Source: Gammaproteobacteria bacterium
GTDB lineage: Bacteria; Pseudomonadota; Gammaproteobacteria; Arenicellales; JAANXG01
DNA: 64,000 bases
Direction: 5' to 3'
NCBI GenBank assembly: GCA_034520625.1
Contig: JAXHNI010000008.1
Span: forward strand, 623,574 to 687,573
The translations under genes were made by a program, and so were the position numbers. Position 1 is the first letter of the stretch; every line of letters starts with the position of its first letter. The notes under the pieces are model-generated. The model was not told the DNA's origin. It ran no database searches and worked only from the letters and a program-made list of their open reading frames with translations. Positions 2,696-19,047 of the stretch are shown in pieces.

Positions 2696-2700
2696 CCCGC

Positions 2701-3655: not shown

Positions 3656-5056
3656 TCAGCGGGATTCGGTGGCGAGTCGGACCGATCGGCGCACGAGCCA
3701 GGTCAGCCCGGCAAGACTCACCGCGGATGCGGCCACGGCGGCCCATCCCGCCGCCTGGATACCCAGTGCGCCGGCCAGGAGAAAAAAAACGGGAATGTAG
3801 ATCAGCACGGCGCAGGCCTGTATACCCAGCACCGTGCCCTCACGTCCAAGCGCATAGCTCGCCGGACGCAGCGCCGCGCCGCCAAGCTCCAGCGCCGCGG
3901 CCGCCAGCAGCAGCGCCAGGACTGCGGCGCCGCGTCGGTACTCCGGGCCCGCCAGCAGTTCCAGCAACGGCGCACCGAGGATCAGCGCCGCCGCCACGAA
4001 GACACCACCCACTGCCAGCATGGCGGTGCTGACCTGCCGGGTCAGGCGCACGAAGCGTTGCGCGTCGCGCGTCCACAAGCGGCTCAAATCCGGGAATATG
4101 GCCTGGCGAAGCAGTGCCACCGGCTTGCCCAGCACTTCGGCCAGGTCCCGCGCCAGGCGAAAAACGCCGGCCCCGGCGGCTCCGAAATATGCGCCCACGA
4201 TCAGGGTCACGACGTGGCGGGGGAACACGTCCAGGTTGGACTGCCAATAGACGACTTTCAGAAACCGTTTCAGCCGCGGCTCGAGCTCGAACACCTGCCC
4301 CAGGCTGTGAGCGGCGATCGCCGGCATGTCCGGCCGCAGGGCCCGCCAGGCGAAACCGAGGACCACCGCATGCTCGACCAGCAGTCCCGCCGCCCAGATG
4401 ATCACGTACCAGTGTGCCGGGGCGCCGGTACCGGCCGCGAACACGACACCCATAAGGCGTACTAAGGGACCAATGGACAACAGGCCCCCGAGCAGCGCGT
4501 ACCGGTCGAGTACGCGAAGCGCCCCCCGGGCGCTGCCCGTAGCAGTCAGCGCCAACGCCGGCACGTAGCACCACGCGGCCGTTTGCAGGGCCGGATCCAG
4601 GCCGAGCAGTGGCCCCGACAACAGGTTCGCCGCGGCGCCGGCCAGGGCAGCCAGCAGCGCAGTCAGCACATCGATTCTCACGGTTCCCGCCAGGAGCCGC
4701 GGCCACGCGTCGCCGCGCCCCGGGTCGCGCCGCGCCACGCCGAAGCGAATGACCGCTTCGGCGGTCTTCACCGTACACAACTGGCGGATAACCAGCACGC
4801 TGGTGTGAACGAGGACCACCGCCCCGAAACTCTCGGCACCCAATGCCCTTGCCGTCAGCACCGTCGCCGCGAGCGTAGCCACCGCCGCACCGCCGCGGCC
4901 ACCGAGCAGCCAACCGAAATTGACCGCCACCCTGCGGCCGTTGCTCAAGACGTTTCCTGGATAATCGGGGAGAAGTCGTCGACGTCCGGCGCCATCAGCG
5001 TTCGAGCAGTTCCCGGGTTTCCCGGGGCACTGCGGTCTCTTCCAGGTAGCCGGCAT
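3656..5056 (-). CDS. MOP-superfamily polysaccharide/oligosaccharide flippase (Wzx/polysaccharide biosynthesis protein-like)
   Basis: 466-aa ORF with about 12-14 hydrophobic segments and a Wzx-like N-terminal region (VNFGWLLGGRGGAAVATLAATVLTARALGAESFGAVV...). The true start is probably downstream, for example TTG at 4948, which would remove the 62-nt overlap with the Crp/Fnr gene. Confidence 0.7.
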   Translation of the reverse strand: MPATWKRPQCPGKPGNCSNADGAGRRRLLPDYPGNVLSNGRRVAVNFGWLLGGRGGAAVATLAATVLTARALGAESFGAVVLVHTSVLVIRQLCTVKTAEAVIRFGVARRDPGRGDAWPRLLAGTVRIDVLTALLAALAGAAANLLSGPLLGLDPALQTAAWCYVPALALTATGSARGALRVLDRYALLGGLLSIGPLVRLMGVVFAAGTGAPAHWYVIIWAAGLLVEHAVVLGFAWRALRPDMPAIAAHSLGQVFELEPRLKRFLKVVYWQSNLDVFPRHVVTLIVGAYFGAAGAGVFRLARDLAEVLGKPVALLRQAIFPDLSRLWTRDAQRFVRLTRQVSTAMLAVGGVFVAAALILGAPLLELLAGPEYRRGAAVLALLLAAAALELGGAALRPASYALGREGTVLGIQACAVLIYIPVFFLLAGALGIQAAGWAAVAASAVSLAGLTWLVRRSVRLATESR

Positions 5057-5744
5057 CGAATCCCGCCCGCTGGGCCAGGCGGACGGGATCCAGCAACACT
5101 ACGCGGCCCGCATCCAGTGTCACCAGGTGCTCGCGGGTCAGCGCGCGAAAGCACCGGTTGGCATGGACATGGCTCATTCCCAGCGTATCCGACAGCAACG
5201 CCTGGGTAAGGGGGAGCAGCCCGGCATCCTCCCGGTCCACCCCCAGCTTGCGCATCCGGACGTGCAGCTCCACGAACAGGTGCGCCATGCGTTCGGCGGC
5301 CCCGCGCCGGCCGACCCGCACGATCTGCTCGTCCAGCATCCGCTCGCCCTGCCCGGCGATCCAGCTCAGCGCCAGGAGCAGACGCGGCCGGTGTGCCAGC
5401 GCATCGACGAGCTCCGTGGACGGGAACACGGCCAGCGACAGGGCCGTGATGGCTTCCACGCCGTAGTCGGACCGTTTCAGCATCACCGTGTACAGTCCCA
5501 TGATGTCACCGGGCAGCAGATAGTTGAGGATCTGCCTCCGTCCGTCGGCGAAGCTCTTGTATCGGAACGCCCAGCCGTCCAGCAGCACCCAGGTCCGGTT
5601 CATATCCTGCTCTTCCATGACAATCAGGTCCCCGGGGGATGCATCCTCGCGATGCTTCAGAAGGTCGTCCAGGGCGGCGAAGTCATCCTCATCGAGGTAG
5701 TCCAACGCGCGCAGGCGGTGGTGCAATGCGGTCGGGTGCTGCAT
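4995..5744 (-). CDS. Crp/Fnr family transcriptional regulator
   Basis: Track ORF 4995..5861 trimmed to the ATG at 5744 (MQHPTALHHRLRAL...). It has a cNMP-binding-like beta-roll (WVLLDGWAFRYKSFADGRRQILNYLLPGDIMG) and a C-terminal HTH (LTQALLSDTLGMSHVHANRCFRAL). Confidence 0.8.
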   Translation of the reverse strand: MQHPTALHHRLRALDYLDEDDFAALDDLLKHREDASPGDLIVMEEQDMNRTWVLLDGWAFRYKSFADGRRQILNYLLPGDIMGLYTVMLKRSDYGVEAITALSLAVFPSTELVDALAHRPRLLLALSWIAGQGERMLDEQIVRVGRRGAAERMAHLFVELHVRMRKLGVDREDAGLLPLTQALLSDTLGMSHVHANRCFRALTREHLVTLDAGRVVLLDPVRLAQRAGFDAGYLEETAVPRETRELLER

Positions 5745-5977
5745 TGTTGACGGGATATTGGCGTTTGTCGGGTGATGTTGCCGGGTGGCGTCGGGGCCAA
5801 TGATACCGTTCCGGTACCGACAGGCGGAAGGCGGAAGGCGGCCGATAGTGCAATGCAGCATACTATATATCTATACAAACAATATGAATCATCTATTTTG
5901 CAAATGCCCGACAATGCGTTAGTCTGCTTCCCGGACTGCCTGCATGACATAACTAGAAAGAGGTCACGACACGAACC

Positions 5978-6850
5978 ATGGCCACCCAAGCCGAACGGGA
6001 ATCGATCCGCCCCTGGCTCCTGCTGTCGCCAGCATTGATCTCCGTCACCCTGCTGCTGGTGATTCCGGTGATATTCATCGTCGTCTACTCGTTCTGGCTG
6101 CGCACCGCTGTGGGCTCGGAGCAGGTCGGCTTTTACATGGACAACTGGGTGGAGGTGCTGACCGACCCGTTCTACCGGGACATCCTGTTCAGCACCCTGC
6201 GCATCGCCGCCATCACCACCATCGTATGCGCTTTGATGGGCTACGTCCCGGCGTATTTCATCGCCCGCTCCCAGACCCGCTACAAGGCCCTGCTGCTGAT
6301 TCTGCTCATCCTGCCGTTCTGGATCAGCTACATCATCCGCACCATGTCCTGGATCAACATCCTGGGAGTGAGCGGCGCGCTGAACTCAGTGCTTCTCGGC
6401 ATCGGCGTAATCGACTCGCCCCTGCAGATGCTCTACAACGAGCCGTCCGTCATCCTCGGCCTGGTGCACTTCCTGCTACCGTTCATGATCCTGAACGTTT
6501 ATGTCAGCGTCGAAGGCATCGATGAAAACCTGACCGACGCAGCGCGCTCTCTGGGCGCCACCGCCTGGCAGTCCTTTCGCGAGGTCACCCTGCCCCTCTC
6601 GCTTCCCGGTCTGGCGGCCGGCGGGCTGCTGTGCTTCGTACTGTCCGCGGGCACCTACATCACGCCCCTGGTGCTGGGCGGGCCCCAGGACAAGATGTTT
6701 GCGAACCTGGTATTCGACGCCATCATCACCCAACTGAACTGGCCACTCGGCTCCGCCATGTCCCTGGTGCTGTTGATCGTGCTAGGTGCCCTGGTGACCG
6801 TTTACAACCGGTTCGTCGGCATTGGCCAGCTGGCCAAGAGCTTCAAATAG
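5978..6850 (+). CDS. ABC transporter permease (PotB/PotH-like)
   Basis: 290 aa with six TM segments, a PotB-like N-terminus (PWLLLSPALISVTLLLVIPV) and the EAA-loop region DENLTDAARSLGATAWQSFREVTLPL. Confidence 0.9.
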   Translation: MATQAERESIRPWLLLSPALISVTLLLVIPVIFIVVYSFWLRTAVGSEQVGFYMDNWVEVLTDPFYRDILFSTLRIAAITTIVCALMGYVPAYFIARSQTRYKALLLILLILPFWISYIIRTMSWINILGVSGALNSVLLGIGVIDSPLQMLYNEPSVILGLVHFLLPFMILNVYVSVEGIDENLTDAARSLGATAWQSFREVTLPLSLPGLAAGGLLCFVLSAGTYITPLVLGGPQDKMFANLVFDAIITQLNWPLGSAMSLVLLIVLGALVTVYNRFVGIGQLAKSFK

Positions 6851-6858
6851 GGGGGGTC

Positions 6859-7653
6859 ATGGGCTCTGTAAGCTGGAATCTGCTCCGCGCCTACACGATT
6901 TTCGTGTACCTGTTTATGTTCACGCCCATCGCGGTGGTCGTTCTGCTGGCATTCAACTCCAGCCAGTTCGGTGCCTTCCCCATGGAGGGCTTCAGCTTCC
7001 GCTGGTTCGTCGCTTTGTGGGAGAACGATGCCATCGTGCGCGCTTTTCAGGTCTCGCTGCTGCTCGGCACGCTGACGGCCCTGATCTCCACGACCCTGGG
7101 CGTGCTGGCCAGTCTGGCCCTGATTCGCTACGACTTTCCCGGCAAGCAGTCCCTCACCACCCTGCTCATCGCCCCGATTCTGGTACCGGAAGTGGTGCTG
7201 GCGGTGGCGCTGCTGCTGTTCCTGGGCTGGCTCGAACTGCACAAGAGCTTCACCATGCTGCTGCTGGGCCACGTAATCTTCACCCTGCCCTTCGTGCTCC
7301 TGGTGGTCCAGGCCCGGCTGGTGGGCATCAAGCGCGAATACGAGGAGGCCGCCCAGAGCCTCGGCGCGAACCCCTTCCAGACTTTCTTCCAGATCACGCT
7401 GCCGCTCCTGCTGCCAGCGGTGGTTGCGGGCTTCCTGTTCGCCTTCACGATTTCCTTCGACGACATCACCGGCACGCTGTTCTGGAAGCCTGGAGGCATC
7501 GAAACCGTCCCGACCCAGATATTCGCGATGCTGCGACACTCCATCAGCCCCGAGATCAACGCGCTGGGAACGGTCATGATCATCATGACCGTTGCGCTGC
7601 CGCTGCTCGGCGTCGCCATAGCGCGACGTCTGGCGTCGTCTTCATCGACATAA
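6859..7653 (+). CDS. ABC transporter permease (PotC/PotI-like)
   Basis: Track ORF 6631..7653 trimmed to the ATG at 6859 (MGSVSWNLLRAYTIFVYLFMFTPI...). The EAA loop is EYEEAAQSLGANPFQTFFQITLPL. It starts 8 nt after the preceding permease. Confidence 0.9.
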   Translation: MGSVSWNLLRAYTIFVYLFMFTPIAVVVLLAFNSSQFGAFPMEGFSFRWFVALWENDAIVRAFQVSLLLGTLTALISTTLGVLASLALIRYDFPGKQSLTTLLIAPILVPEVVLAVALLLFLGWLELHKSFTMLLLGHVIFTLPFVLLVVQARLVGIKREYEEAAQSLGANPFQTFFQITLPLLLPAVVAGFLFAFTISFDDITGTLFWKPGGIETVPTQIFAMLRHSISPEINALGTVMIIMTVALPLLGVAIARRLASSSST

Positions 7654-7698
7654 CGCAATGCAATTCAAACCGAAAAACCTCAAAGGAGGATACGCAAC

Positions 7699-8850
7699 AT
7701 GACCAACACCAAACGCTATGAACGACTGCTTGAACGCTACAGGAACGGCGACATCGACCGCCGTACTTTCCTCGGACTGCTCGGTGCCGCAGGCCTCGCC
7801 GCCGGTGTGATCGGCGGGCCCCTGCGGCCCATCAGCCGGGCGGTCGCCGCCGACGTCGAACAGATCCGTTTCGACGGCTGGGGCGGCGTGGTCTCGGAAG
7901 CATTTCGTGAGCACGCATTCGACCCCTATACCGAGGCCACCGGCATCGAAGTGGTGGACGGGACCTTCGGCGGCGCCGACGAGTATCTGGCCCGGGTGCG
8001 CTCCAGCCAGCCCGGCGAATACAACCTCGCCCACCTGTCCGGGGTATTCGACTACGAGCGTTACCACAACCTCGACTACAGCGTGGAGCTCAACGAGGAC
8101 AACATTCCGAACCTCGACAACTGCATCCCCAAGCTGGTGGACGTGTTCCGCAAGGTCACCGGCGGCACTCTTTCGGCCGTGCCCTACGACTACGGCACCA
8201 CCAACCTGGCCTACAACCGGAAGCACATCTCCGATGACGAGATCCGGGAAAAGGGCGCCAAGATCCTGATCGACGAGGCCTACAAGGGCAAGATCGGCGG
8301 CTGGGGCGAATGGAAGACCCGTATCTGGTACGGGGCCCTGCAGACCGACCAGGATCCCAACAACATCCAGGACATGGACGCCGTGTGGGATGCCATCCGC
8401 ACCCACCGCGACCTGGCCCTGAAATACTGGGGCTCCGGCGCGGAGCTGATGAGCCTGCTGGCCGAGGAAGAGATCTACGTCACCGAAGCCTGGTCCGGCC
8501 GCGTCCGCGCCCTGCAGGACCAGGGCCACGACATCGGGTACTACGACCCGCCGGGCGGCATCGCCTGGCAGGAATGCCTGTTCGTGATCAAGGGCAGCCC
8601 GCTGCCGGAGTGCGAGGAGCTTCTCAACTTCATGCTCGAGCCCGAGGTGGCAATCGCCGTGGCCGAGGGCCAGAACTATCCGCCGGCCCTGGATCCCAAC
8701 AAGGTGGACCTGGGCGACAAGGTGCCGACCCTGCCGGCGTTCGACCCGACGGGCACCCTGGAGAACCTGACGTTCTTCGACCCGGCGTACTGGAACGGCA
8801 ACGAGGCCGAATGGTCGAAGACCTTCGGCCGGGTTCAGCAGGGCTACTAG
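7699..8850 (+). CDS. ABC transporter periplasmic substrate-binding protein (PotD/PotF family) with a twin-arginine-type signal
   Basis: 383 aa. The N-terminus DIDRRTFLGLLGAAGLAAGVIG matches the RRxFL Tat motif. The remainder resembles family-1 extracellular solute-binding proteins. Confidence 0.85.
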   Translation: MTNTKRYERLLERYRNGDIDRRTFLGLLGAAGLAAGVIGGPLRPISRAVAADVEQIRFDGWGGVVSEAFREHAFDPYTEATGIEVVDGTFGGADEYLARVRSSQPGEYNLAHLSGVFDYERYHNLDYSVELNEDNIPNLDNCIPKLVDVFRKVTGGTLSAVPYDYGTTNLAYNRKHISDDEIREKGAKILIDEAYKGKIGGWGEWKTRIWYGALQTDQDPNNIQDMDAVWDAIRTHRDLALKYWGSGAELMSLLAEEEIYVTEAWSGRVRALQDQGHDIGYYDPPGGIAWQECLFVIKGSPLPECEELLNFMLEPEVAIAVAEGQNYPPALDPNKVDLGDKVPTLPAFDPTGTLENLTFFDPAYWNGNEAEWSKTFGRVQQGY

Positions 8851-8959
8851 GCCGGCAGCACGCCGGAAACCGCGGCCTCGGTGCGCTCCGCGAGGGGCGC
8901 ACCGGGGTCACTTCCGACAACATCTCACAACGTAAATACAAAGTCAGAGGTCTTCAAAC

Positions 8960-10048
8960 GTGGCGGAAAAAACGGCGGTCAAGCTAGACGGCATCGTCAA
9001 GCGGTTCGGCGGGCTCACCGCGGTCCACGAGATGAACCTGGACATCCAGGAAGGTGAATTCGTGACGTTCCTCGGACCCAGCGGGTGCGGCAAGACCACG
9101 ACGCTGCGCATGGTCGCCGGGCTGCTGGACCCGAGCGAAGGCGACATTCTGATCCACGGCAAGCGCGTCAACGACCTGCCCATACACAAGCGCAACCTGG
9201 GCCTGGTCTTCCAGAACTACGCGCTGTTTCCCCACAAGACGATTTTCGACAACATTGCATTCGGACTGAAGTATCGCGACGTGTCCCGCGACGACCTCCA
9301 GAAGCGTGTCAGCGAGGCGCTGGAGCTGGTCCAGCTGCCGCACACGGCGGACCGCTACCCGGCCCAGCTGTCCGGCGGGCAGCAGCAGCGCATCGCCCTG
9401 GCCCGCGCCATCGTGATCCGTCCCGAGGTGCTGCTGCTGGACGAGCCCCTGTCCGCCCTCGACGCCAATCTGCGGGAGGACATGCGGGTGGAGCTCAAGC
9501 GCATCCAGGACCAGCTAGGGATCACCACGATTTTCGTGACCCACGACCAGTCCGAGGCGCTGGCGATGTCCGACCGCATCGTGGTCATGAGCGAAGGCCG
9601 CGTGGAGCAGGTGGACCCGCCCCAGGTGGTCTACAGCAACCCCGCCTCCCTGTTCGTATCCCAGTTCCTGGGCAACTCGAACACGCTTTCCGGCCGCCTG
9701 GAATCGAAGAACGGAACCCATATCGTGCAGGTGGACGGCCTGGGCGCCATCCAGGTGGACGAGGCCCAGCTCAAGGAGTTCAGCGACGGCGACGCCGTGA
9801 CCCTGGTGATCCGGGCGGAGAAGCTCGCTCTCAGTGAGACCGAGAACCGGGAGGACAACGCCACCCAGCTCACCGGCCGCGTGACGGCGGTGGACTACCA
9901 GGGCACCGCGGCCCGGTATTTCATCAGTGCCGGCGGGCATTCCCTGCAGGCCTTCAACCAGATCGACCAGGAGCCCGTGAAGGAAGACACGGATATCCAT
10001 ATCCGCATCCGGGCGCGCGACTGCGTGCTGCTCGAGCCGGAGGCCTGA
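8960..10048 (+). CDS. ABC transporter ATP-binding protein (PotA-like)
   Basis: Walker A GPSGCGKTT, signature LSGGQQQR, Walker B LLLDEPLSALD, H-loop VTHDQ, and a C-terminal TOBE-like regulatory domain. Confidence 0.95.
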   Translation: MAEKTAVKLDGIVKRFGGLTAVHEMNLDIQEGEFVTFLGPSGCGKTTTLRMVAGLLDPSEGDILIHGKRVNDLPIHKRNLGLVFQNYALFPHKTIFDNIAFGLKYRDVSRDDLQKRVSEALELVQLPHTADRYPAQLSGGQQQRIALARAIVIRPEVLLLDEPLSALDANLREDMRVELKRIQDQLGITTIFVTHDQSEALAMSDRIVVMSEGRVEQVDPPQVVYSNPASLFVSQFLGNSNTLSGRLESKNGTHIVQVDGLGAIQVDEAQLKEFSDGDAVTLVIRAEKLALSETENREDNATQLTGRVTAVDYQGTAARYFISAGGHSLQAFNQIDQEPVKEDTDIHIRIRARDCVLLEPEA

Positions 10049-10084
10049 CTTGAACCGGGGCGATACCGGCGCCATACGTACCCG

Positions 10085-11440
10085 ATGACCACGAAATCCT
10101 CGCATCTTTTCTACCAGACACGCCAGCGCCGGCCCCTGATCGACCGTGCCGAAGGCATCCATATCTGGGATGTTCACGGCCAACGCTACATCGACGGTTC
10201 CAGCGGGGCGATGGTGGCCAACATCGGCCACAGCAATCCGCGCGTTCTGCAGGCCATGCGCGAGCAGATGGACAAGGCGACATTCGCTTATCGCCTGCAC
10301 TTCGAGAACGAGCCCGCCGAGGAGCTGGCCCGTGAAGTATCGGCGCTCATGCCAGAGGGCATGGACCGGGTATTCTTCGTCTCCGGCGGTTCCGAGGCGG
10401 TCGAATCCTGCATCAAGCTGGCTCGCAGCTGGGCCGTGGCGACGGGTCGAACCCAGCGTTACAAGATCATCTCCCGGTTTCCGTCCTACCACGGCAGCAC
10501 CCTCGGCGCGCTGGGGGTCACCGGCTCCACCCCGTTCACGGCGCCCTATGCGCCCATGATCGTGGAGATGCCCAAGATCCCCGCCCCCACCTGCTATCTC
10601 GACCGGGACGACCTGTCCATGCCGGAACGCGGCCTGCGGTATGCCGAAATGCTGCGAACGGAGATCCTGCGCCAGGGGCCGGAGACCGTGCTCGCTTTCA
10701 TGATGGAGCCCATCGGCGGCGCCTCCACAGGCGCCCTGGTGGCGCCGGAGAGCTACTACGAACGGATCCGGGAGATCTGCGACGAATTCGGTATTCTGCT
10801 GATCCTGGACGAGGTCATGACGGGGGCCGGACGCACCGGCCGGTTTCTGGGCGCCGAGCACTGGAACCTGCAGGCGGACATCATGTCGTTGTCCAAGGGT
10901 TTCGCCGCCGGGTACGCGCCGCTGGGGGCCATGGTAGCCCATCGCCGCATCGTGGAGCCGGTGCTCGACGCCGGCGGCTTCCCCCACGGCTACACCTACG
11001 CCGGCAATCCCCTGGCGGCGGCGGCCGGCCGCGCCGTCCTTCGGGAGATCCTCGAGCAGGACCTCATCGGCAACGCGCAAGCCATGGGCGATATCCTGAA
11101 GAAGCGGCTGGAAAGCCTGATGCACCGCTTTCCCTTCGTCGGCGACGTGCGCGGCAAGGGCCTGCTGCTGGCTTTCGAGCTGATGGACCGGCGCTCCGGG
11201 GAGCCGCTGGATCCCGCCCTCAACGCCCATTCGCGGCTGGTGGAACTGGCCTATGAGCGCGGCCTGATCATCTACTCGCGACGCACCCGGGGCGGCGCCC
11301 GGGGCGATCACTTCATGGTCTGCCCGCCGATGATCATCACCGAAGCGCAGATCGACGAGATCATGGCACTGCTCAATGACAGCCTGAGCGCGTTCGCCGC
11401 CGAGGTGTCGCTGCCGGACGAGGGCGCCCATGCCGCGTGA
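10085..11440 (+). CDS. class-III (omega/beta-amino acid type) PLP aminotransferase
   Basis: 451 aa. It shows class-III hallmarks: YIDGSSGAMVANIGH, FFVSGGSEAVE, ILLILDEVMTGAGRTG and the lysine region SLSKGFAAGYAP. Confidence 0.9.
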   Translation: MTTKSSHLFYQTRQRRPLIDRAEGIHIWDVHGQRYIDGSSGAMVANIGHSNPRVLQAMREQMDKATFAYRLHFENEPAEELAREVSALMPEGMDRVFFVSGGSEAVESCIKLARSWAVATGRTQRYKIISRFPSYHGSTLGALGVTGSTPFTAPYAPMIVEMPKIPAPTCYLDRDDLSMPERGLRYAEMLRTEILRQGPETVLAFMMEPIGGASTGALVAPESYYERIREICDEFGILLILDEVMTGAGRTGRFLGAEHWNLQADIMSLSKGFAAGYAPLGAMVAHRRIVEPVLDAGGFPHGYTYAGNPLAAAAGRAVLREILEQDLIGNAQAMGDILKKRLESLMHRFPFVGDVRGKGLLLAFELMDRRSGEPLDPALNAHSRLVELAYERGLIIYSRRTRGGARGDHFMVCPPMIITEAQIDEIMALLNDSLSAFAAEVSLPDEGAHAA

Positions 11441-12359
11441 GGTCATCATTACCTGCGCGGTGACGGGCTCCGTGCACACGCCGAGCATGAGCCCCAACCT
11501 GCCGGTCACCCCCGACGAGATCGCGGACCAGGCCATCGCCGCGGCCCGGGCCGGCGCCGCCATCCTCCATCTGCACGCCCGCGACCCGGACACCGGTCAC
11601 CCGACCCCTGACCCGGATGTATTCATGCGGTTCCTGCCGCGCATCAGGGCCGAATGCGATGCGGTGGTTAACATCACCACCGGCGGCGGCATGGGCATGA
11701 CCGTGGCGCAGCGCCTCGAAGCCGCAATGCGGGCCGAGCCGGAGATGTGCTCCCTGAACATGGGCAGCATCAATTTCGGTCTGTTCCCCGCCCTGGACAA
11801 GCCGCGGGAATGGCGCCACGAGTGGGAGCCGGAGTTTCTGGAAAACAGCCGTGACTTCGTGTTCAAGAACACCTTCAAGGACATCGAAACCGCCCTCCAG
11901 CGGCTGGGCGTCGAGCGCGGCACCCGCTTCGAGTTCGAGTGCTACGACGTGGGCCATCTGTACAACCTGGCTCACTTTCTGGAGCGCGGTCTGGTGGAGC
12001 CGCCGCTGTTCGTTCAGTTCGTCCTGGGAATCCTGGGGGGCATCGGCGCGGACACGGAGAACCTCGCGTTCATGAAGCGCACCGCCGACAAGCTGTTCGG
12101 CGACGCCTATCGTTTCTCCATCCTCGGCGCCGGCCGCCACCAGATGCCGCTGGCCGCCGCGTCGTTGTCCATGGGCGGCCACGTTCGCGTCGGGCTGGAG
12201 GACAACCTGTTCCTGGGGCCCGGTGAGCTGGCGCCCGACAACGCCGCACAGGTGGCGCGGGCGCGGCAGCTCATCGACGGGCTGTCGTTGAACGTCGCCG
12301 GCCCGGCCGCGGCCCGCGAAACTCTGGGCCTCAAGGGCGCCGACCGGGTCGCGTTTTAA
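11430..12359 (+). CDS. beta-keto acid cleavage enzyme (BKACE / 3-keto-5-aminohexanoate cleavage enzyme family, DUF849)
   Basis: 309 aa. The N-terminus MPREVIITCAVTGSVHTPSMSPNLPVTPDEIADQAIAAARAGAAILHLHARDP is the canonical BKACE TIM-barrel opening. It overlaps the aminotransferase stop by 11 nt. Confidence 0.85.
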   Translation: MPREVIITCAVTGSVHTPSMSPNLPVTPDEIADQAIAAARAGAAILHLHARDPDTGHPTPDPDVFMRFLPRIRAECDAVVNITTGGGMGMTVAQRLEAAMRAEPEMCSLNMGSINFGLFPALDKPREWRHEWEPEFLENSRDFVFKNTFKDIETALQRLGVERGTRFEFECYDVGHLYNLAHFLERGLVEPPLFVQFVLGILGGIGADTENLAFMKRTADKLFGDAYRFSILGAGRHQMPLAAASLSMGGHVRVGLEDNLFLGPGELAPDNAAQVARARQLIDGLSLNVAGPAAARETLGLKGADRVAF

Positions 12360-12367
12360 TTGTGGCC

Positions 12368-12424
12368 TGTAGGTCGGGCGCGAGCCCGACATTCAATACG
12401 AGTCGGGCTCGCGCCCGACCTACA
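12368..12424. repeat. REP-like hairpin, type 2 (perfect 23-bp inverted repeat, 11-nt loop)
   Basis: TGTAGGTCGGGCGCGAGCCCGAC at 12368-12390 is the exact reverse complement of 12402-12424. It lies between the BKACE stop and the deacetylase start. Confidence 0.85.
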
Positions 12425-12441
12425 CCATGGGTGCATGCAAC

Positions 12442-13485
12442 ATGAAGGTTTTCTATTCAGACATCCAGACCCGCCACGACCCCAAGTGCTTCCTGGTCAA
12501 CGGGCAGCAACAGCCGAACCCGGAAGTACCCGGACGGGCCGACGCCCTGGTGGCGGCGGCCCGGGAGGCGGACCATGACGTCACCGAGCCCGACGATCAC
12601 GGCCTTGGCCCGATGGCCGCCGTGCACACGCCGGAGTATCTGCAGTTCCTGAGCACCATCCACAAGCGCTGGAGCCGCATCGAGGGAGCGTCCGAGGAAG
12701 TCATTCCCAATATCCATCCCACCAACCGGGACGGCCGCTACCCCTCCTCCGCCGCCGGCCACGCCGGCTACCACATGGCGGATACCGCGTGCCCGATCTC
12801 GGCGAATTCCTGGGAATCCATTTACTGGGGCGCCAACAGCGCCGTGAGCGCGACCGACCACGTGCTGGCGACCGGCGCACCGGCCTATGCATTGTGCCGG
12901 CCTCCCGGTCACCACGCGTTCGCCGACGTGGCCGGCGGCTTCTGTTTCGTGAACAATTCCGCGGTGGCCGCCCTGCGCCTGCGCGGCGCCCACAACCGGG
13001 TCGCCATCATCGACGTGGATCTGCACCACGGCAACGGGACCCAGGGCATCTTCTACCACCGCCCGGACGTGTTCACGCTCTCCATCCACGCCGACCCCGA
13101 TCGCTTCTACCCGTTTTTCTGGGGCCACGCCGACGAGCGCGGCGCCGGACCGGGACTGGGCTACAACCTGAATCTGCCCATTCCCCGCGGCGCCGGCGAC
13201 GATGTGTTCCTGCCCACCCTGGACAAGGGACTGAAGCGCGTGAGGTCGTTCGCCCCCGGCGCCATCGTCGTGGCGCTCGGCTTGGACGCCTTCGAGGGCG
13301 ACCCGTTCGGCGGGCTCGCGGTCACTACGCCGGGCTTCGCCGAGATTGCGGAACGCGTCGGTCGATGCTGCCGGGGCCTGGGAGTACCGGCGGTCCTGGT
13401 CCAGGAAGGCGGCTACCTGTGCCCCGAGCTCGGCGACAACCTGGTCAGCTTCCTGTCGGGCTTCGAAAAAGGCCGCGATGCGTAG
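12442..13485 (+). CDS. histone-deacetylase-family amidohydrolase (acetylpolyamine amidohydrolase-like)
   Basis: Motifs CRPPGHHA, DVDLHHGNGTQ and EGGY. The N-terminus MKVFYSDIQTRHD parallels APAH (MRVIFSEDH, from memory). I prefer the ATG at 12442 over 12427, because 12427 sits directly against the REP hairpin. Confidence 0.85.
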   Translation: MKVFYSDIQTRHDPKCFLVNGQQQPNPEVPGRADALVAAAREADHDVTEPDDHGLGPMAAVHTPEYLQFLSTIHKRWSRIEGASEEVIPNIHPTNRDGRYPSSAAGHAGYHMADTACPISANSWESIYWGANSAVSATDHVLATGAPAYALCRPPGHHAFADVAGGFCFVNNSAVAALRLRGAHNRVAIIDVDLHHGNGTQGIFYHRPDVFTLSIHADPDRFYPFFWGHADERGAGPGLGYNLNLPIPRGAGDDVFLPTLDKGLKRVRSFAPGAIVVALGLDAFEGDPFGGLAVTTPGFAEIAERVGRCCRGLGVPAVLVQEGGYLCPELGDNLVSFLSGFEKGRDA

Positions 13486-13502
13486 GTCTGGTCGCTAGCC
13501 GC

Positions 13503-13706
13503 AATCGGCGAGAGGGCTCGCCTCCTACACGAGGGGGCCGTCGATCCGTAGGAGGCCAGCCCTCTGGCCGATCAGCCATGGCTGGAGGCCGTAATCGGCG
13601 AGAGGGCTCGCCTCCTACACGCGAGGGGCCGTCGACCCGTAGGAGGCCAGCCCTCTGGCCGATGAGACGTGGCTTGAAGCCGCAATCGGCCAGAGGGCCG
13701 GCCTCC
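13503..13706. repeat. BIME-like cluster of REP type-1 elements (about 5 copies in alternating orientation)
   Basis: AATCGGCGAGAGGGCTCGCCTCCTAC occurs at 13503-13528 and 13593-13618. It is paired with GTAGGAGGCCAGCCCTCTGGCCGAT at 13548-13572 and 13639-13663. A degenerate copy lies at 13684-13706. Confidence 0.85.
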
Positions 13707-13784
13707 GCGGGGGATCAATCGAGTCTGACCCCATTGATTCCATCTTCCATTGGCCCTCCTGGCGATCTCCCTCATAATTCCGGT

Positions 13785-14759
13785 ATGAAACGGGAGAATC
13801 CCGATCCCCGGATACTGGCGCTGAACTGGAACCTGCTCCGCACCTTTATGGTGATCGTCCAGGAGGGCAGCGTCACGGCGGCGGCCGCCAGGCTGAACCG
13901 CAAGCAGCCCACCATCAGCAACGCCCTCGGTCAACTGGAGAAGCAGCTCGACAAACACCTGATCGAACGCCGGCCGGGCCGGTTCCGCGTGACCAGCGCG
14001 GGCGAGCATCTGTATCGCGAATGCCTCGAGATATACGGCAATATCGCGCGCATTCCCACCCTGATCCGGGACATCGAGGACGAGGTCCGCGGCCAGATCC
14101 GCATCAGCATGGCCAGCCATGTGGTCTGCCCGCTGTTCGACTCGGTGATGAGCGAGTTCCACGGCCTGCATCCCAACGCCACCTTCCACGTCTCCATCGC
14201 CACCAGCGGCGACGTGGTGCAGCAGGTGCTGGAAAAGACCGCCAGCTTCGGCATCTGCCTGGTGCACGAGCCCCACCCCAGGCTCACCTACCAGCAGATG
14301 TACCGTGAGTACTTCGGGTTCTTCTGCGGACCGGGCCATCCCCTTTTCGGCCGCAGGGACCTGGCCATGGACGACCTGCAGAACGAATCCCTGGTTTCCT
14401 TCAATACAGACCAGCTTTCCGGACAACTGCGCCCGGTCGCGCTGCTGCGGGTACAGCAGAATGTCGGCCGACGCATCACGGCGATCTCCCCGCACCTCGA
14501 GGAAGTGCGGCGCATGATCGTCAACGGCCTGGGCATCGGCCCCCTGCCCATTCACGTCGTGCAGCGGGACGTCGAGGACGGTGTTTTGTGGCGGCTGCCG
14601 CCCTACGAGGACCCGCCCGCCATCGACATCTACCTGGTGTGGAATCCCCGCACCACCCTGAACCGCGCGGAAAACGAATTCCTCACCACCCTGCGGAACC
14701 GGATCGAGAGCACACCGGAGGAAGAGCGAAACTTCCTGCCGGGGAATGTGTCCGAGTAG
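13785..14759 (+). CDS. LysR family transcriptional regulator
   Basis: In-frame ATG at 13785 within the artefactually long track ORF 12789..14759. The wHTH reads LNWNLLRTFMVIVQEGSVTAAAARLNRKQPTISNALGQLEKQL and is followed by a LysR substrate-binding domain. Confidence 0.9.
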   Translation: MKRENPDPRILALNWNLLRTFMVIVQEGSVTAAAARLNRKQPTISNALGQLEKQLDKHLIERRPGRFRVTSAGEHLYRECLEIYGNIARIPTLIRDIEDEVRGQIRISMASHVVCPLFDSVMSEFHGLHPNATFHVSIATSGDVVQQVLEKTASFGICLVHEPHPRLTYQQMYREYFGFFCGPGHPLFGRRDLAMDDLQNESLVSFNTDQLSGQLRPVALLRVQQNVGRRITAISPHLEEVRRMIVNGLGIGPLPIHVVQRDVEDGVLWRLPPYEDPPAIDIYLVWNPRTTLNRAENEFLTTLRNRIESTPEEERNFLPGNVSE

Positions 14760-14778
14760 GCTTCGCGCCGGCGGCGCC

Positions 14779-16035
14779 ATGCAGTACCATGGCGCGCCCT
14801 CCAACCCGACCGAGACAGACGAACTGGTGGATCAATCCCGCTCACCCGCACCCGCTGAAGCACCCCGCCAGGACCTGACCGTCGACGGGACGGAAGTGAC
14901 GCTGCTTGGCACGGCCCATGTCTCGCGGCAGAGCATCGAGGACGTCAAGCAGGCCCTCGCCGACGGCGACCACGATGCAGTCGCCGTCGAGCTGTGTGAA
15001 CCGCGCTACCGGCGCCTCACCGGCACCGACGACTGGAGCCGGACCGACCTGTTCCGGATCATACGGTCCGGCCATGGCGGTCTGGTCGCGGCACAGCTTG
15101 CGTTGTCCGCCTACCAGAAGCGGCTCGCCGATCAGCTCGGTGTGGAGCCGGGCGGGGAGATGCGGGGCGCCATCGAGGCGGCAGCGGAACGGGGACTGCC
15201 GCTCTGGTTCGTTGATCGGGACATCGGCGTTACGCTCAAACGCCTGGTACGCTCGCTCCCCTGGCATCAGCGCCTGATGCTCATCAACGGGCTGCTGGCG
15301 TCGCTGTTTACCCGCGGCAGCGTGGACGAATCCGACATCGAGAGCCTGAAACACGGCGACATACTGGAAAGCACGTTCAGCGAATTCGCAGAGCACTCGC
15401 CGACCCTCTACCGCGTGCTGTTGACCGAGCGCGACCAGTACATGGCCGCGAGTCTTCGCCAGCGCATCGCCCGTGACCGGCCGCACCGGCTGCTGGTGGT
15501 GGTCGGCGCGGGGCATCTCAAGGGCCTCGCCGGGCAACTGCGGGAAAACGCGGACCCACAGGCCACACGCAGTGCCCTGGAACAGATCCCCCCGCGCAGC
15601 GCATTCAGCCGCGCGCTTCCCTGGTTGGTGGTCGGCATCATACTCGCCGGCTTCGTCATCGGGTTCCTCCGCAGCCCCGAGCTCGGCTTGCGGTTGGTGA
15701 CCGACTGGGTTGTGATCAATGGAACTCTCACCGCCGTGGGCGCCCTCATCGCCCGCGCCCACCCGGCAACTGTGGTAACGGCATTCGTCGCCGCTCCACT
15801 CACCTCGTTGAATCCGCTCATCGGAGCGGGCATGGTCACCGCCGCAGTGGAAACCTACTTCCGCAAACCCCGGATGGTGGATTTCGAGAATCTGCGCGAC
15901 CAGGTTACCCGGCTGCGTGGCTGGTACGCCAATCGCGCCACCCGGATCCTGCTGGTGTTCGTGCTCTGCACCGTAGGTTCGGTGGCGGCGACCTATATCG
16001 CGGGATTCCGGATATTCGGGAAGCTGGTCGCCTGA
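14779..16035 (+). CDS. TraB/PrgY-family protein (membrane-anchored C-terminus)
   Basis: VTLLGTAHVSRQSIEDV carries the TraB-family GTAHVS motif. VVVGAGHLKGL is present, and the C-terminus has 4-5 TM segments. The start is taken at MQYHG (14779). Confidence 0.8.
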   Translation: MQYHGAPSNPTETDELVDQSRSPAPAEAPRQDLTVDGTEVTLLGTAHVSRQSIEDVKQALADGDHDAVAVELCEPRYRRLTGTDDWSRTDLFRIIRSGHGGLVAAQLALSAYQKRLADQLGVEPGGEMRGAIEAAAERGLPLWFVDRDIGVTLKRLVRSLPWHQRLMLINGLLASLFTRGSVDESDIESLKHGDILESTFSEFAEHSPTLYRVLLTERDQYMAASLRQRIARDRPHRLLVVVGAGHLKGLAGQLRENADPQATRSALEQIPPRSAFSRALPWLVVGIILAGFVIGFLRSPELGLRLVTDWVVINGTLTAVGALIARAHPATVVTAFVAAPLTSLNPLIGAGMVTAAVETYFRKPRMVDFENLRDQVTRLRGWYANRATRILLVFVLCTVGSVAATYIAGFRIFGKLVA

Positions 16036-16114
16036 CCGGCGCGCCTCGCCTCCTGCGTCTTGGTGGGTATCCCTCCCCCGCAGGCTTGATCGGCCAGGGG
16101 GCTGGCGTCCTACG
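16036..16114. repeat. REP type-1 copies (one degenerate, one good)
   Basis: GATCGGCCAGGGGGCTGGCGTCCTACG lies at 16088-16114, and a degenerate copy CCGGCGCGCCTCGCCTCCTGCG lies at about 16036-16057. Confidence 0.7.
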
Positions 16115-16133
16115 CCGTTTTACGATCGCCGGC

Positions 16134-16727
16134 TCAGTCGATTTCCGCGTGGGTGACAACGGACCCGGCTTCTCGCAAGCGCGCGGCGAGTTGCTCGATA
16201 TCCGCATCGTCCCGGATGGCAGTGACCCGGTAGACGCCTGCGCTGCCAGGACCCTGCACGATCTCGATATGCAACTCGTTGAGGAGTCGGCGTATATCCC
16301 GTTCCGTTGCGCCCGGGTCGAATCGGACCTGTATGGTGGGTGTAGCCGTCGCCTCGCCGGCGGGCTTGTAAGTATCACCGCCCCGCCGTGCATCGATCAA
16401 CAATCCGGCCTGTACAGCGATCACCAGAACCGCCGCGGCAATCGCGGGCCGCCACCACCACCCGGCAGCGACGGCCGACCCGGACTTCCGGGATTCCTCA
16501 TCAATAGTGGATTTCAGGCGGCGCAGTCCGAACTCTCCCGGTGAGCCAAAGTCCTGGGACTTCACGGTCTCGCGCACCTGTCGCAGCATCTCGACGTCGG
16601 CGGCAGCCCGTTCGTTGTCCTGCAGGTAATCGCGCACTCTATTCGCTTCCGCGCCGGTCAGGGTATCGTTGACATACCAGGGAAGCAGCTCTTCCATATC
16701 ACGATCGTCGCTGATGTCTTCTGCCAT
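16134..16727 (-). CDS. putative anti-sigma factor (single-pass membrane protein)
   Basis: Track ORF trimmed to the ATG at 16727, which forms an ATGA overlap with the ECF sigma stop. The N-terminal anti-sigma-like helix is LLPWYVNDTLTGAEANRVRDYL, with the zf-HC2 Cys/His ligands apparently absent. It has one TM segment (WWWRPAIAAAVLVIAVQAGLLI) and a roughly 100-aa periplasmic domain. Confidence 0.65.
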   Translation of the reverse strand: MAEDISDDRDMEELLPWYVNDTLTGAEANRVRDYLQDNERAAADVEMLRQVRETVKSQDFGSPGEFGLRRLKSTIDEESRKSGSAVAAGWWWRPAIAAAVLVIAVQAGLLIDARRGGDTYKPAGEATATPTIQVRFDPGATERDIRRLLNELHIEIVQGPGSAGVYRVTAIRDDADIEQLAARLREAGSVVTHAEID

Positions 16728-19032: not shown

Positions 19033-19047
19033 CGCTCGAATCTCCCG

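Follow-up and report, generated by a model that had tools for sequence, protein, structure and literature searches.

What does an operon that combines an ABC importer with a class-III aminotransferase, a BKACE enzyme and an HDAC-type deacetylase take up and degrade? The operon lies in a 64,000-nucleotide stretch of DNA (hereafter the window) from an uncultured marine gammaproteobacterium; the label "halophile-like genome" given to the source in a first-pass annotation is not borne out. That annotation proposed a catabolic route of the N6-acetyl-beta-lysine type. Our own reading, to which we assign a probability of roughly 0.55, is that the locus may be an inducible operon for taking up and catabolising N6-acetyl-beta-lysine (3-amino-6-acetamidohexanoate) or a very similar compound.

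Layout of the locus

Profile searches and reading of the open reading frames place seven tightly spaced, co-directional genes on the plus strand at 5978-13485. The features of the locus are as follows.

5862..5977, no strand: AT-rich intergenic stretch ahead of the first permease gene, read directly; putative promoter/operator of the operon
5978..6850, plus strand: PotB-like ABC permease, 290 aa (PF00528, BPD_transp_1)
6859..7653, plus strand: PotC-like ABC permease, 264 aa, corrected coordinates (PF00528, BPD_transp_1, in the frame of ORF 6631-7653)
7699..8850, plus strand: periplasmic substrate-binding protein of the PotD/PotF-type fold, 383 aa (SBP_bac_8/SBP_bac_6, TAT signal)
8960..10048, plus strand: ABC ATPase with TOBE domain, 362 aa (ABC_tran and TOBE_2)
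10085..11440, plus strand: class-III (PLP) aminotransferase, 451 aa; proposed N6-acetyl-beta-lysine transaminase (PF00202, 1e-97)
11430..12359, plus strand: BKACE, 309 aa; proposed 6-acetamido-3-oxohexanoate:acetyl-CoA cleavage enzyme (PF05853, 5e-109)
12442..13485, plus strand: HDAC-fold Zn deacetylase, ApaH-like, 347 aa; proposed 4-acetamidobutanoyl-CoA / 4-acetamidobutanoate deacetylase (PF00850, 3e-72)
13486..13740, no strand: REP-like palindromic repeats, two and a half units, forming long hairpins (repeat count, fold energy, alignment)
13750-13778, strand not given: promoter-like site of the LysR gene, TTGGCC-17-CATAAT (promoter scan)
13785..14759, plus strand: LysR-type regulator (orthology to cluster LysRs)

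Family matches recover all seven genes in the order first proposed, and the 11-nt overlap described between the aminotransferase and BKACE genes is present at 11430-11440. While the gene content thus stands, three details have changed: the second permease now lies at 6859-7653, the start of the deacetylase is moved, and the LysR gene is added. The PotC-like permease starts at ATG 6859, preceded by a G-rich ribosome-binding stretch, and, along all of its 264 aa, shares 88% identity with the corresponding gene call of L083, a related contig. ORF 6822-7721, taken from a mechanical ORF list as a candidate for the second permease, was rejected, having no family match in Pfam or NCBIfam. The deacetylase frame opens at 12427 (ORF 12427-13485), but the protein probably starts at Met 12442, since a database protein of 347 aa is 100% identical.

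A scan of 5862-5977 for a consensus promoter gave no match. At the other end, the core of the REP-like repeat occurs four times in the window against none expected, and the predicted fold of 13486-13740 (-154.9 kcal/mol, z = -7.8) suggests that these hairpins mark the 3' boundary of the seven-gene transcript, with a putative role as terminator or stabiliser. The LysR protein encoded beyond them is 47-60% identical to a cluster-adjoining LysR in 17 other loci, and shares 48.6% identity with that of the Brucella cluster; in the close relative L083, too, a LysR gene follows that of the deacetylase. On orthology, we assign the LysR gene to the operon unit, as its predicted regulator.

The BKACE belongs to a clade marked by its gene neighbours

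The BKACE retains the Zn ligands H47/H49/E257, the base E170, R253/D258 and the carboxylate binders T83/S108/N110. An acetamido tail is neutral. Val15 stands at the position of Kce Glu14, one of three residues faced by the distal, amino-bearing end of the Kce substrate, and BKACEs of group G1, to which the nearest solved structures belong, accept "apolar and non-charged terminal moieties" (PMC11961710 supplement; PMC4922564).

The protein also matches NF053538 (511 bits, cut-off 430), an NCBIfam "equivalog" named "3,5-dioxohexanoate:acetyl-CoA acetone transferase". This raises the possibility that the enzyme cleaves 3,5-dioxohexanoate (triacetate) or another neutral beta-keto acid in an aromatic or polyketide-type route, and that its neighbours are coincidental. 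Among its close solved relatives is BKACE15 (378 bits), a characterised G1 enzyme that indeed cleaves 3,5-dioxohexanoate and beta-ketohexanoate, although the in-vitro screen behind that activity covered only 20 substrates. Coincidence, however, does not account for the neighbours. In our tree the BKACEs that have this aminotransferase, this deacetylase or a GNAT acetyltransferase beside them fall into one clade, which includes the window BKACE; no such neighbours occur in the sister clade, the one with PDB 3e49. An ortholog of the deacetylase, taken at 50% identity or more, adjoins the BKACE gene in 25 of the 27 clade members, against 0 of 36 BKACEs from elsewhere (Fisher p = 1.4e-15, kinship ignored), and the arrangement is therefore far from chance. 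Furthermore, BKACE15 carries the out-group residue at four of five clade-specific positions (I17, R148, T198, W230), and phloroglucinol- or aromatic-pathway genes are absent from the locus. We consider this explanation extremely improbable. The first-pass annotation had counted membership of a BKACE subfamily with a different substrate against its own proposal, and the NCBIfam name formally places the protein in one; we judge the name not to refute the acetyl-beta-lysine reading, because the label stems from a promiscuous group and the clade is distinct.

The deacetylase lacks the polyamine contacts of ApaH

The first-pass annotation held acetylated polyamines to be equally possible substrates. 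On that account, acetylputrescine, acetylcadaverine or acetylspermidine would be imported and deacetylated by the ApaH-like enzyme, the aminotransferase would act on the diamine, and the BKACE would be functionally unrelated. Several features are consistent with this: the transporter has a PotABCD-like architecture, the aminotransferase resembles putrescine and polyamine transaminases (about 245-255 bits), and the deacetylase, which has no match in NCBIfam, carries the cluster-4 motifs RPPGHH and EGGY and finds its best solved relatives (3men, 9gkz, 6phr, 3q9b) among proteins annotated as acetylpolyamine amidohydrolases.

The equivalents of the catalytic residues are all kept (H158/H159/D195/H197/D284/Y323). 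Elsewhere, however, the enzyme differs from ApaH by E17F, F27P, E106A, Y168F, F225Y and PIS to PFG, and Glu106, Phe27, Tyr168, Phe225 and the PIS motif are the polyamine contacts of M. ramosa ApaH (PMC11532494). All 29 cluster-linked deacetylases show the same replacements (Glu106 to Ala or Val, Phe27 to Pro, Tyr168 to Phe, Phe225 to Tyr, PIS to PFG), with no conserved acidic substitute. More distant homologs of the deacetylase, at 51-57% identity, occur in other contexts. Also against polyamine use, the operon has no aminoaldehyde dehydrogenase, the BKACE gene is invariably present and overlaps that of the aminotransferase, and the amino-acid importer, GNAT and thioesterase of the sister operons described below would make no sense in polyamine catabolism. 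Acetylpolyamines thus become a less likely substrate than first supposed, and we regard them as very unlikely.

The transporter points the same way, in that the Pot equivalog models all score far under their cut-offs: 207.9 bits against 348 for the PotB-like permease, and only 35.9 against 582 for the binding protein. The ATPase barely exceeds the cut-off of the potA subfamily model TIGR01187 (357.1 against 355.6 bits). The closest solved structures to the binding protein (PotD, a GABA sensor scaffold and a mannopine binding protein) are very distant, with E about 1e-8, and the protein is too diverged for its specificity to be read. The aminotransferase exceeds the cut-off of no NCBIfam model, and the function of its best solved relative, 3i4j, is not known.

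Related operons and the acetyltransferase

The full gene set, with the LysR gene, is kept in Thalassospira, Hwanghaeella, Ferruginivarius and Halofilum, as well as in an Ectothiorhodospiraceae MAG and in the contig most closely related to the window. Orthologs of the binding protein (75-80% identical) are found in the PotD-type loci, of which the window locus is one, and orthologs of the PotB-like permease (71-75%) are encoded at the corresponding place in Thalassospira, Arhodomonas, Hwanghaeella and Ferruginivarius. The aminotransferase has orthologs of 58-74% identity directly upstream of a BKACE gene in 29 other loci. The triad of enzymes is also conserved in Rhizobiales, whose operons contain the same three orthologs at 59-74% identity. 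In Brucella intermedia the order is LysR, SBP_bac_3, two permeases, ATPase, DMFA2_C, aminotransferase, BKACE, GNAT, HDAC and 4HBT, with overlapping stop and start codons, and the core of this operon recurs in at least 13 Mesorhizobium species, in Phyllobacterium, and on plasmids of Shinella, Roseateles and Rhizobium. The 4HBT thioesterase gene is present in some Rhizobiales operons, beside those for the aminotransferase, BKACE, deacetylase, GNAT and an amino-acid ABC importer of lysine/arginine/ornithine-like type. The binding protein of the Brucella-type operon has its highest scores with cystine and lysine/arginine/ornithine models, a result in keeping with a basic amino acid.

Within a 9-kb neighbourhood, GNAT is encoded in 0 of 10 PotD-type loci, drawn from two proteobacterial classes, and in 19 of 20 other loci with the aminotransferase and deacetylase (p = 3.7e-7, kinship ignored); the GNAT-bearing loci are mostly from Rhizobiales. 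Homologs of the GNAT, the 4HBT thioesterase and DMFA2_C were not found in the 64-kb window. The absence of GNAT from PotD-type loci fits import of a substrate that is already acetylated. Alternatively, the core chemistry is the same but free beta-lysine or another 3,x-diamino acid is imported, with the acetyltransferase encoded elsewhere in the genome, of which the window covers only 64 kb. The usual ligands of PotD-fold binding proteins are polyamines, and classically cationic amines, which would suit such a substrate, as would the orthology of the aminotransferase, BKACE, deacetylase and LysR to those of GNAT-bearing operons. Set against the GNAT counts, this alternative would require each lineage to depend on a dedicated acetyltransferase encoded away from the operon, which is less parsimonious, and we think it unlikely.

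Some related operons also contain genes that lie outside our model: in Rhizobiales the addition is DMFA2_C, in Halofilum and Thalassospira it is DAO-M20-RidA. Two loci combine DMFA2_C, BKACE and HDAC without aminotransferase or GNAT, and in Azospirillum a BKACE and a deacetylase are paired with quite different partner enzymes. The additional genes hint at a more complex substrate or at variants, and together with the Azospirillum pairing and the promiscuity of G1 BKACEs toward neutral beta-keto acids they leave some room for another beta-amino acid, neutral or N-acylated and so far unrecognised among natural products and osmolytes, processed by the same scheme of aminotransferase, BKACE and amide hydrolase. 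However, no other natural compound is known to need an acetyltransferase, beta-transaminase, BKACE, deacetylase and thioesterase together, and for exactly this enzyme set beta-lysine has direct biochemical precedent. The amino-acid-type binding protein of the GNAT variant also scores near lysine/arginine/ornithine binders. We hold this possibility to be rather unlikely.

Proposed pathway

Under the acetyl-beta-lysine reading, the PotD-fold binding protein and ABC transporter would import the acetylated zwitterion, and arrival of the substrate in this form would explain why the window operon has no GNAT. The aminotransferase would remove the 3-amino group (EC 2.6.1.65 chemistry), giving 6-acetamido-3-oxohexanoate, which the BKACE, its gene presumably translationally coupled to that of the aminotransferase, would convert with acetyl-CoA to acetoacetate and 4-acetamidobutanoyl-CoA. 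The deacetylase may act on this thioester, or on 4-acetamidobutanoate once the thioester is hydrolysed, yielding acetate and a 4-aminobutyrate unit that would enter GABA catabolism. The N6-acetyl group would serve as a protecting group, blocking cyclisation of the 6-amine onto the 3-keto group; where a relative takes up the diamino acid unacetylated, the GNAT would add it. The deacetylase probably works late in the pathway, since a GNAT and an early-acting deacetylase from the same operon would undo each other in a futile cycle, and the window enzyme shares its binding-site signature with orthologs from GNAT-bearing operons. The LysR protein would probably respond to the substrate or to one of the pathway intermediates.

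Comparison with the classical beta-lysine pathway

The activities EC 2.6.1.65 and 3.5.1.51 belong to the classical pathway of beta-lysine degradation. In Pseudomonas B4 this pathway, the subject of papers from the Barker laboratory in 1979-81, reportedly comprises an acetyltransferase, a transaminase, an acetyl-CoA-dependent cleavage, a deacetylase and a thioesterase. The first-pass annotation equated the aminotransferase, BKACE and deacetylase with three steps of the N6-acetyl-beta-lysine route, a correspondence that comparative genomics supports. It also described the activities as not known to have assigned genes, and in the searchable open literature we likewise found no gene assignment for the steps of the pathway. 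If our reading is true, these would be the genes for a pathway described biochemically around 1980. The Rhizobiales GNAT has no NCBIfam match to the archaeal beta-lysine acetyltransferase AblB and is not its ortholog. The gene families of the Brucella/Mesorhizobium-type operon match all five activities reported for Pseudomonas B4, whereas the window operon would start at the second step.

Organisation of the operon and its surroundings

The ORF listing and family scans confirm, with minor coordinate corrections, the seven co-directional genes that the first-pass annotation had placed at 5978-13485, as well as the 11-nt overlap it had described between the aminotransferase and BKACE genes. The window comes from an uncultured gammaproteobacterium and has a G+C content of ∼64%; the closest named relatives of the source genome's proteins are from Arenicellales MAGs. 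The genes of the operon and the adjoining regulator gene are as follows.

5978-6850, + strand: PotB-like permease (ORF listing and family scans)
6859-7653, + strand: PotC-like permease, 264 aa (88% identical over its full length to a gene called in a related contig)
7699-8850, + strand: PotD-fold binding protein with a TAT signal (family scans)
8960-10048, + strand: ABC ATPase with a TOBE domain (family scans)
10085-11440, + strand: class-III aminotransferase (PF00202, 1e-97, 327.7 bits, residues 18-432, a full-length match)
11430-12359, + strand: BKACE (PF05853/DUF849, 5e-109, 364 bits)
12427-13485 (ORF; likely Met at 12442), + strand: HDAC-fold deacetylase (PF00850, 3e-72, 244 bits)
13785-14759, + strand: LysR regulator gene, with its own promoter-like site upstream

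The BKACE also matches its family over the full length, residues 5-301 covering positions 2-274 of the 274 in the PF05853 profile. Met 12442 is the most likely start of the deacetylase, since a database entry of 347 aa matches it with 100% identity. An ORF at 6822-7721, considered as the second permease, was rejected; it is without a family match.

We regard the LysR gene as part of the unit because its product is 48.6-60% identical to the LysR proteins that accompany the same cluster in other genomes. The ORF opposite it (13572-14804, −) has no family match and is its antisense shadow. The deacetylase and LysR genes are separated by 255 nt of REP-like hairpins (13486-13740), which consist of two and a half palindromic units of ∼90 nt each, with the core AATCGGCGAGAGGGCTCGCCTCCTACA, and fold with −154.9 kcal/mol (z = −7.8). 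The core has 4 matches in the window against 0 expected, and copies further off lie at 27883-27909 (−) and 46187-46213 (+). Scanning for consensus promoters and terminators gave sites no more common than in shuffled sequences, save for the promoter-like site before LysR.

On the upstream side, a Crp/Fnr-family regulator gene (4995-5861, −) diverges from the operon, at the site held by a LysR gene in other PotD-type loci, that is, clusters with a Pot-fold importer like that of the window. Two further ORFs, 3656-5056 (−) and 2491-3213 (+), have coding-like third-position G+C but no Pfam or NCBIfam match, and the first was set aside as a gene candidate; in the matching region of the nearest relative contig, L083, hypothetical genes of 409, 94 and 167 aa are called. 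On the downstream side, L083 has an aconitase gene directly after LysR (12081-15829), whereas ∼13 kb lies between the two in the window (14746-27900), which would be either an insertion in the window or a deletion in L083. This stretch holds a TraB/GumN-family gene, an ECF sigma/anti-sigma pair (∼16134-17400), three large ORFs without a Pfam match (17299-19032, 19048-21150 and 21418-23589), a 980-aa CARDB-containing protein (23773-26715) and a subtilase (26934-27818), with a REP-like copy at its right edge. Elsewhere, at 40731-49365, a short family-B DNA polymerase gene (629 aa, 43022-44911) lies near an NTP_transf_5 nucleotidyltransferase (40731-41822), together with an amidohydrolase, a metallo-β-lactamase-fold gene and an Amidoligase_2 (48376-49365)/Peptidase_C26 (47708-48397) pair.

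The enzymes are conserved in two types of operon

Scanning species-representative genomes with the window's BKACE yielded 80 loci, which we compared with the window's proteins by tblastn. The full set of two permeases, binding protein, ATPase, aminotransferase, BKACE and deacetylase is found at 55-80% identity, usually with a divergently oriented LysR gene, in Thalassospira, Hwanghaeella, Ferruginivarius and an uncultured bacterium (L067). Arhodomonas and a Rhodovibrionaceae MAG have all of the set but an adjacent deacetylase, while on the shorter contig of an Ectothiorhodospiraceae MAG the set is present from the binding protein onward. By look-ups of single homologs, gene order is the same in L083, whose BKACE is 92% identical to that of the window, and in Halofilum ochraceum.

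Orthologs of the aminotransferase, BKACE and deacetylase, 59-74% identical to those of the window, occur in a different operon in at least 13 species of Mesorhizobium, in Phyllobacterium, in Brucella intermedia and on several Rhizobiales and Burkholderiales plasmids. In B. intermedia (L081) a divergent LysR gene is followed by an SBP_bac_3 binding protein, two permeases, an ATPase, a DMFA2_C-like protein, the aminotransferase, the BKACE, a GNAT acetyltransferase, the HDAC-fold deacetylase and a 4HBT thioesterase, with 4-nt overlaps at the GNAT/deacetylase and deacetylase/thioesterase junctions. Both its binding protein and its permeases belong to the polar amino-acid type, and they match cystine and lysine/arginine/ornithine models best, below the cut-offs. 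The 4HBT thioesterase is found as well in some Mesorhizobium operons and in that of Halofilum. The DMFA2_C-like protein (550 aa; PF20254, no NCBIfam match; 5379-7034 in L081 and 6916-8604 in a further locus, L022) has its gene immediately before that of the aminotransferase in 17 of the 20 Rhizobiales-type loci; speculatively, it might be an amidase or a lactamase.

The aminotransferase-BKACE-deacetylase triad, whose conservation the first-pass annotation had named as a check, is kept across genomes, in several PotD-type and Rhizobiales-type loci. In a neighbour-joining tree of 65 BKACEs from the scanned loci, those adjoining this aminotransferase, the deacetylase or a GNAT gene all fall in one clade, with the window's BKACE inside it, and no such neighbours occur in the sister clade, which contains PDB 3e49. 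An ortholog of the deacetylase adjoins the BKACE in 25 of the 27 clade members and in 0 of 36 others (p = 1.4e-15, without correction for phylogeny).

The BKACE is of the neutral-substrate type

The window's BKACE keeps the Zn ligands H47, H49 and E257, the catalytic residues E170, R253 and D258 (Glu171, Arg254 and Asp259 in the numbering of BKACE15 from Paracoccus denitrificans) and the carboxylate binders T83, S108 and N110 (Thr85, Ser110 and Asn112), the roles of which are defined in the BKACE15 structures (PMC11961710). It is predicted to cleave a β-keto acid in an acetyl-CoA-dependent manner, giving acetoacetate and an acyl-CoA. Inspection of the pocket, another check named at first pass, finds all catalytic residues in place, and finds Val15 at the position of Glu14 in Kce, the BKACE of lysine fermentation. 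According to PMC11961710, Kce Glu14 is one of three residues facing the distal, amino-bearing end of the substrate. The residue is Val in 25 of 27 clade members and Ile in 38 of 40 others. Four more changes are specific to the clade (R148K, T198F, I199V and W230F); among the clade-specific positions only position 17 has a documented role.

The best solved relatives are 3e49, 3e02, 8rio and 3lot, the nearest being G1-type; the enzyme is closest to G1 templates and has no charged residue at the Kce Glu14 position, as expected of group G1, to which BKACE15 is stated to belong (PMC11961710). G1 enzymes are described, in PMC11961710 and PMC4922564, as promiscuous and as accepting 'apolar and non-charged terminal moieties'. 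An acetamido tail fits this description; a free ammonium would not.

The first-pass annotation had held that a place in a subfamily with a different demonstrated substrate would refute its proposed route. NCBIfam would give the enzyme a name of this kind: the BKACE scores 511.4 bits, against a cut-off of 430, with NF053538, the equivalog model for 3,5-dioxohexanoate:acetyl-CoA acetone transferase. This is evidence against the acetyl-β-lysine reading, yet we judge that it does not refute it, because the name comes from an in-vitro screen of a promiscuous group with 20 substrates, because the physiological role of BKACE15 is stated as unknown, and because, at four of the five positions that mark the clade, BKACE15 has the residue of the out-group. 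The window's clade stands apart from both BKACE15 and 3e49 by its neighbours and by 4-5 signature residues. Given this distinctness, we consider a 3,5-dioxohexanoate-type role very improbable, for all that the score passes the cut-off.

The deacetylase and transporter depart from polyamine systems

The deacetylase is a bacterial ApaH-like (acetylpolyamine amidohydrolase-like) 'cluster 4' enzyme, without any NCBIfam match, that keeps all catalytic residues (equivalents of H158, H159, D195, H197, D284 and Y323) and the RPPGHH and EGGY motifs. Its closest solved relative is 3men of B. pseudomallei, a protein for which we know of no assay. In ApaH of M. ramosa, Glu17 is among the polyamine contacts. 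The others, as reported in PMC11532494, are Glu106, which forms a salt bridge, Phe27, Tyr168, Phe225 and a PIS motif. At these places the window's enzyme has E17F, F27P, E106A, Y168F, F225Y and PFG for PIS, and each of the 29 deacetylases linked to the cluster, in either type of operon, shows the altered signature, with Ala or Val at 106. That the contacts are replaced argues against acetylpolyamines as substrate, and that the signature is shared argues for the same deacetylase substrate in both operon types. Use of acetylpolyamines by the operon is, in the light of these replacements, scarcely credible to us.

The transporter subunits score far below the Pot equivalog cut-offs (PotD 35.9 against 582, PotB 207.9 against 348, PotA 384.6 against 482); a broad model, that of the potA subfamily, is narrowly passed (357.1 against 355.6). 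Among solved structures the binding protein has remote relatives only, and deriving its specificity from them was abandoned because they are too distant.

A candidate route for N6-acetyl-β-lysine

The first-pass annotation had suggested that the three enzymes make up an N6-acetyl-β-lysine-type catabolic route. Work in Barker's laboratory (1979-81) reportedly showed that Pseudomonas B4 degrades L-β-lysine aerobically via five activities. These are said to be an acetyl-CoA-dependent N6-acetyltransferase, followed by N6-acetyl-β-lysine transaminase (EC 2.6.1.65), an acetyl-CoA-dependent cleavage of 3-keto-6-acetamidohexanoate to acetoacetate and 4-acetamidobutyryl-CoA, and lastly a deacetylase and a thiolesterase that yield 4-aminobutyrate; the last two reportedly reside on one purified Pseudomonas B4 protein, 4-acetamidobutyryl-CoA deacetylase-thiolesterase (EC 3.5.1.51). 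We found no sequences attached to this pathway.

Candidates for the transaminase, the cleavage enzyme and the deacetylase are adjacent and co-oriented in the window, a match of chemistry types, while the N6-acetyltransferase and thiolesterase steps lack a candidate, with no GNAT, 4HBT or DMFA2_C homolog found within the 64 kb. The Brucella operon, in turn, encodes a plausible protein for each of the five activities together with an importer that would suit a basic amino acid, and to our knowledge no other natural substrate needs an acetyltransferase, a transaminase, a BKACE, a deacetylase and a thioesterase. GNAT is absent from all 10 PotD-type loci, the window included, and present in 19 of the 20 other loci with both aminotransferase and deacetylase (p = 3.7e-7); the one exception is on a short contig, where the upstream ATPase suggests that it is in fact PotD-type. 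Because GNAT tracks the type of transporter, window-type operons probably import an acetylated substrate, and those with importers for a free diamino acid would acetylate it after entry by means of GNAT. That free β-lysine is imported here too, and acetylated by an unlinked enzyme, is a quite unlikely alternative, as GNAT is missing from every PotD-type locus and from the whole of the window.

If the deacetylase did not act later, its presence in the same operon as GNAT would create a futile cycle, so we place it, as the first-pass annotation did, at the end of the route, where it would act on a later intermediate; the argument comes from the GNAT-bearing sister operons. As the window is without a thioesterase, the CoA ester might be resolved by the deacetylase acting on the thioester itself, with lactam formation or a housekeeping thioesterase as the next step. 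Two acyl-CoA ligases in the window were considered as activators of acetoacetate and rejected, being an acetate-CoA ligase and a PrpE-like ligase. The aminotransferase matches no NCBIfam model above its cut-off, and no reference sequence was found for EC 2.6.1.65; from its context, we propose that it is the N6-acetyl-β-lysine transaminase.

Our reading of the operon is that it would serve the uptake and catabolism of N6-acetyl-β-lysine, to which we give a probability of roughly 0.55; comparative genomics lends the idea more support than it had when proposed. Several genes do not fit the simple pathway model. In Halofilum ochraceum (L084, 10966-15247) and Thalassospira lucentensis (L001, 11022-14950) genes for a DAO-family FAD oxidoreductase, an M20 deacylase and RidA come after that of the deacetylase, in Halofilum with 4-nt junction overlaps and the 4HBT thioesterase last; the model explains neither these genes, which are absent from the window, nor the Rhizobiales DMFA2_C-like protein. 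Two loci, in Ciceribacter and Arenimonas, have DMFA2_C-BKACE-deacetylase without aminotransferase or GNAT. Such genes could be variations on a theme, with oxidative instead of transaminative deamination or an extra deacylation, or could signal a substrate family broader than β-lysine. Insofar as the accessory and variant operons point to the latter, they favour some other neutral or N-acylated β-amino acid as the substrate of the window's operon, which we nevertheless regard as unlikely.

Deacetylase homologs at a greater distance are found together with BKACEs in operons of a very different make-up. On plasmid p2 of Azospirillum brasilense Sp7 (L085, 109-12606), a homolog of 52% identity and a BKACE are accompanied by an M20 deacylase, a peptide-type ABC importer, a ketopantoate-reductase-like dehydrogenase, a Zn hydrolase and an acetolactate-synthase-like ThDP enzyme. 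This operon may encode another BKACE pathway, distinct from the first, whose substrate is N-acylated. The plasmid homologs of Azospirillum and Qingshengfaniella were set aside as support, their contexts being other ones.

Implications of the assignment

A full-text search of the open-access literature, which is not proof of absence, found no paper assigning genes to steps of the β-lysine pathway, and the papers on acetyl-β-lysine that it found all concern synthesis or occurrence. Both the enzyme families and the chemistry of the pathway were known before; what appears to be new is the gene assignment, the logic of two operon types and the prediction that an ApaH-like enzyme has a substrate other than a polyamine. 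N-ε-acetyl-β-lysine is a compatible solute (osmolyte) of methanogenic archaea, and β-lysine is a building block of streptothricin-type antibiotics. We suggest tentatively, at somewhat under even odds, that the operon is dedicated to the scavenging of N-ε-acetyl-β-lysine.

If our reading is correct, it would provide the first genes for the orphan EC 2.6.1.65 and EC 3.5.1.51, as well as for the unnamed enzyme that cleaves 3-keto-6-acetamidohexanoate, in a 45-year-old orphan pathway known for more than 40 years from purified enzymes, and would give the first known bacterial route consuming N-ε-acetyl-β-lysine and β-lysine, tying osmolyte release by archaea to aerobic marine and saline heterotrophs. 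The substrate of an HDAC-fold enzyme would be a small acetamido-acyl-CoA or acetamido-acid, and neither a polyamine nor a protein, which would extend the substrate range of the bacterial HDAC fold, and the 'protect, then deprotect' use of acetyl would be split over two operon types according to whether the free or the acetylated compound is imported. New annotations could be given to thousands of proteins that databases at present call '3-keto-5-aminohexanoate cleavage protein', 'histone deacetylase family protein' or 'aspartate aminotransferase family protein'. A specialist may not find the result very surprising, but cultured carriers of the cluster (Thalassospira lucentensis DSM 14000, Halofilum ochraceum, Brucella intermedia and Mesorhizobium species) make the prediction directly testable.

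Comparison with known systems

The Pseudomonas B4 activities map one-to-one on the chemistries of the cluster family, of which the window holds the middle three. The window differs in having neither acetyltransferase nor thioesterase and in having a dedicated ABC importer, which together imply growth on the acetylated compound; in the cluster family, moreover, deacetylase and thioesterase would be separate proteins (HDAC-fold and 4HBT).

The carnitine module consists of carnitine dehydrogenase, a BKACE that is the dehydrocarnitine cleavage enzyme, and betainyl-CoA thioesterase. Both there and in lysine fermentation (Kdd and Kce) the BKACE stands mid-route, as in the window, an upstream enzyme making the β-keto acid, and the BKACE step gives a CoA ester and acetoacetate, with a thioesterase or hydrolase completing the route. 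In the window, however, we propose that a PLP transaminase, not a dehydrogenase, makes the β-keto acid from a β-amino acid. The carnitine and Kce BKACEs belong to cationic-substrate groups (G5 or G2) and that of the window to the neutral-substrate G1, and the route of the cluster family would be bracketed by an N-acetyl protect/deprotect pair, GNAT and the HDAC-fold enzyme.

BKACE15 (PDB 8RIO/8RIP/9HNF) is G1-type like the window's enzyme, with identical Zn, catalytic and carboxylate-binding residues, but the window's BKACE lies in a separate clade by its neighbours and by I17V, R148K, T198F and W230F. The bacterial ApaHs (M. ramosa ApaH, P. aeruginosa PA1409/PA0321 and Pseudomonas sp. ApaH; PMC11532494) share the fold of the window's deacetylase, at ∼40-50% similarity, along with the His-His pair, the Asp/His/Asp Zn site, the Tyr and the RPPGHH and EGGY motifs; unlike them, the window's enzyme has its polyamine contacts replaced, by residues that are conserved in the cluster-linked orthologs. 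The PotABCD and PotFGHI polyamine importers have the four-component architecture and the protein families of the window's transporter, whose subunits nonetheless fall far short of the equivalog cut-offs.
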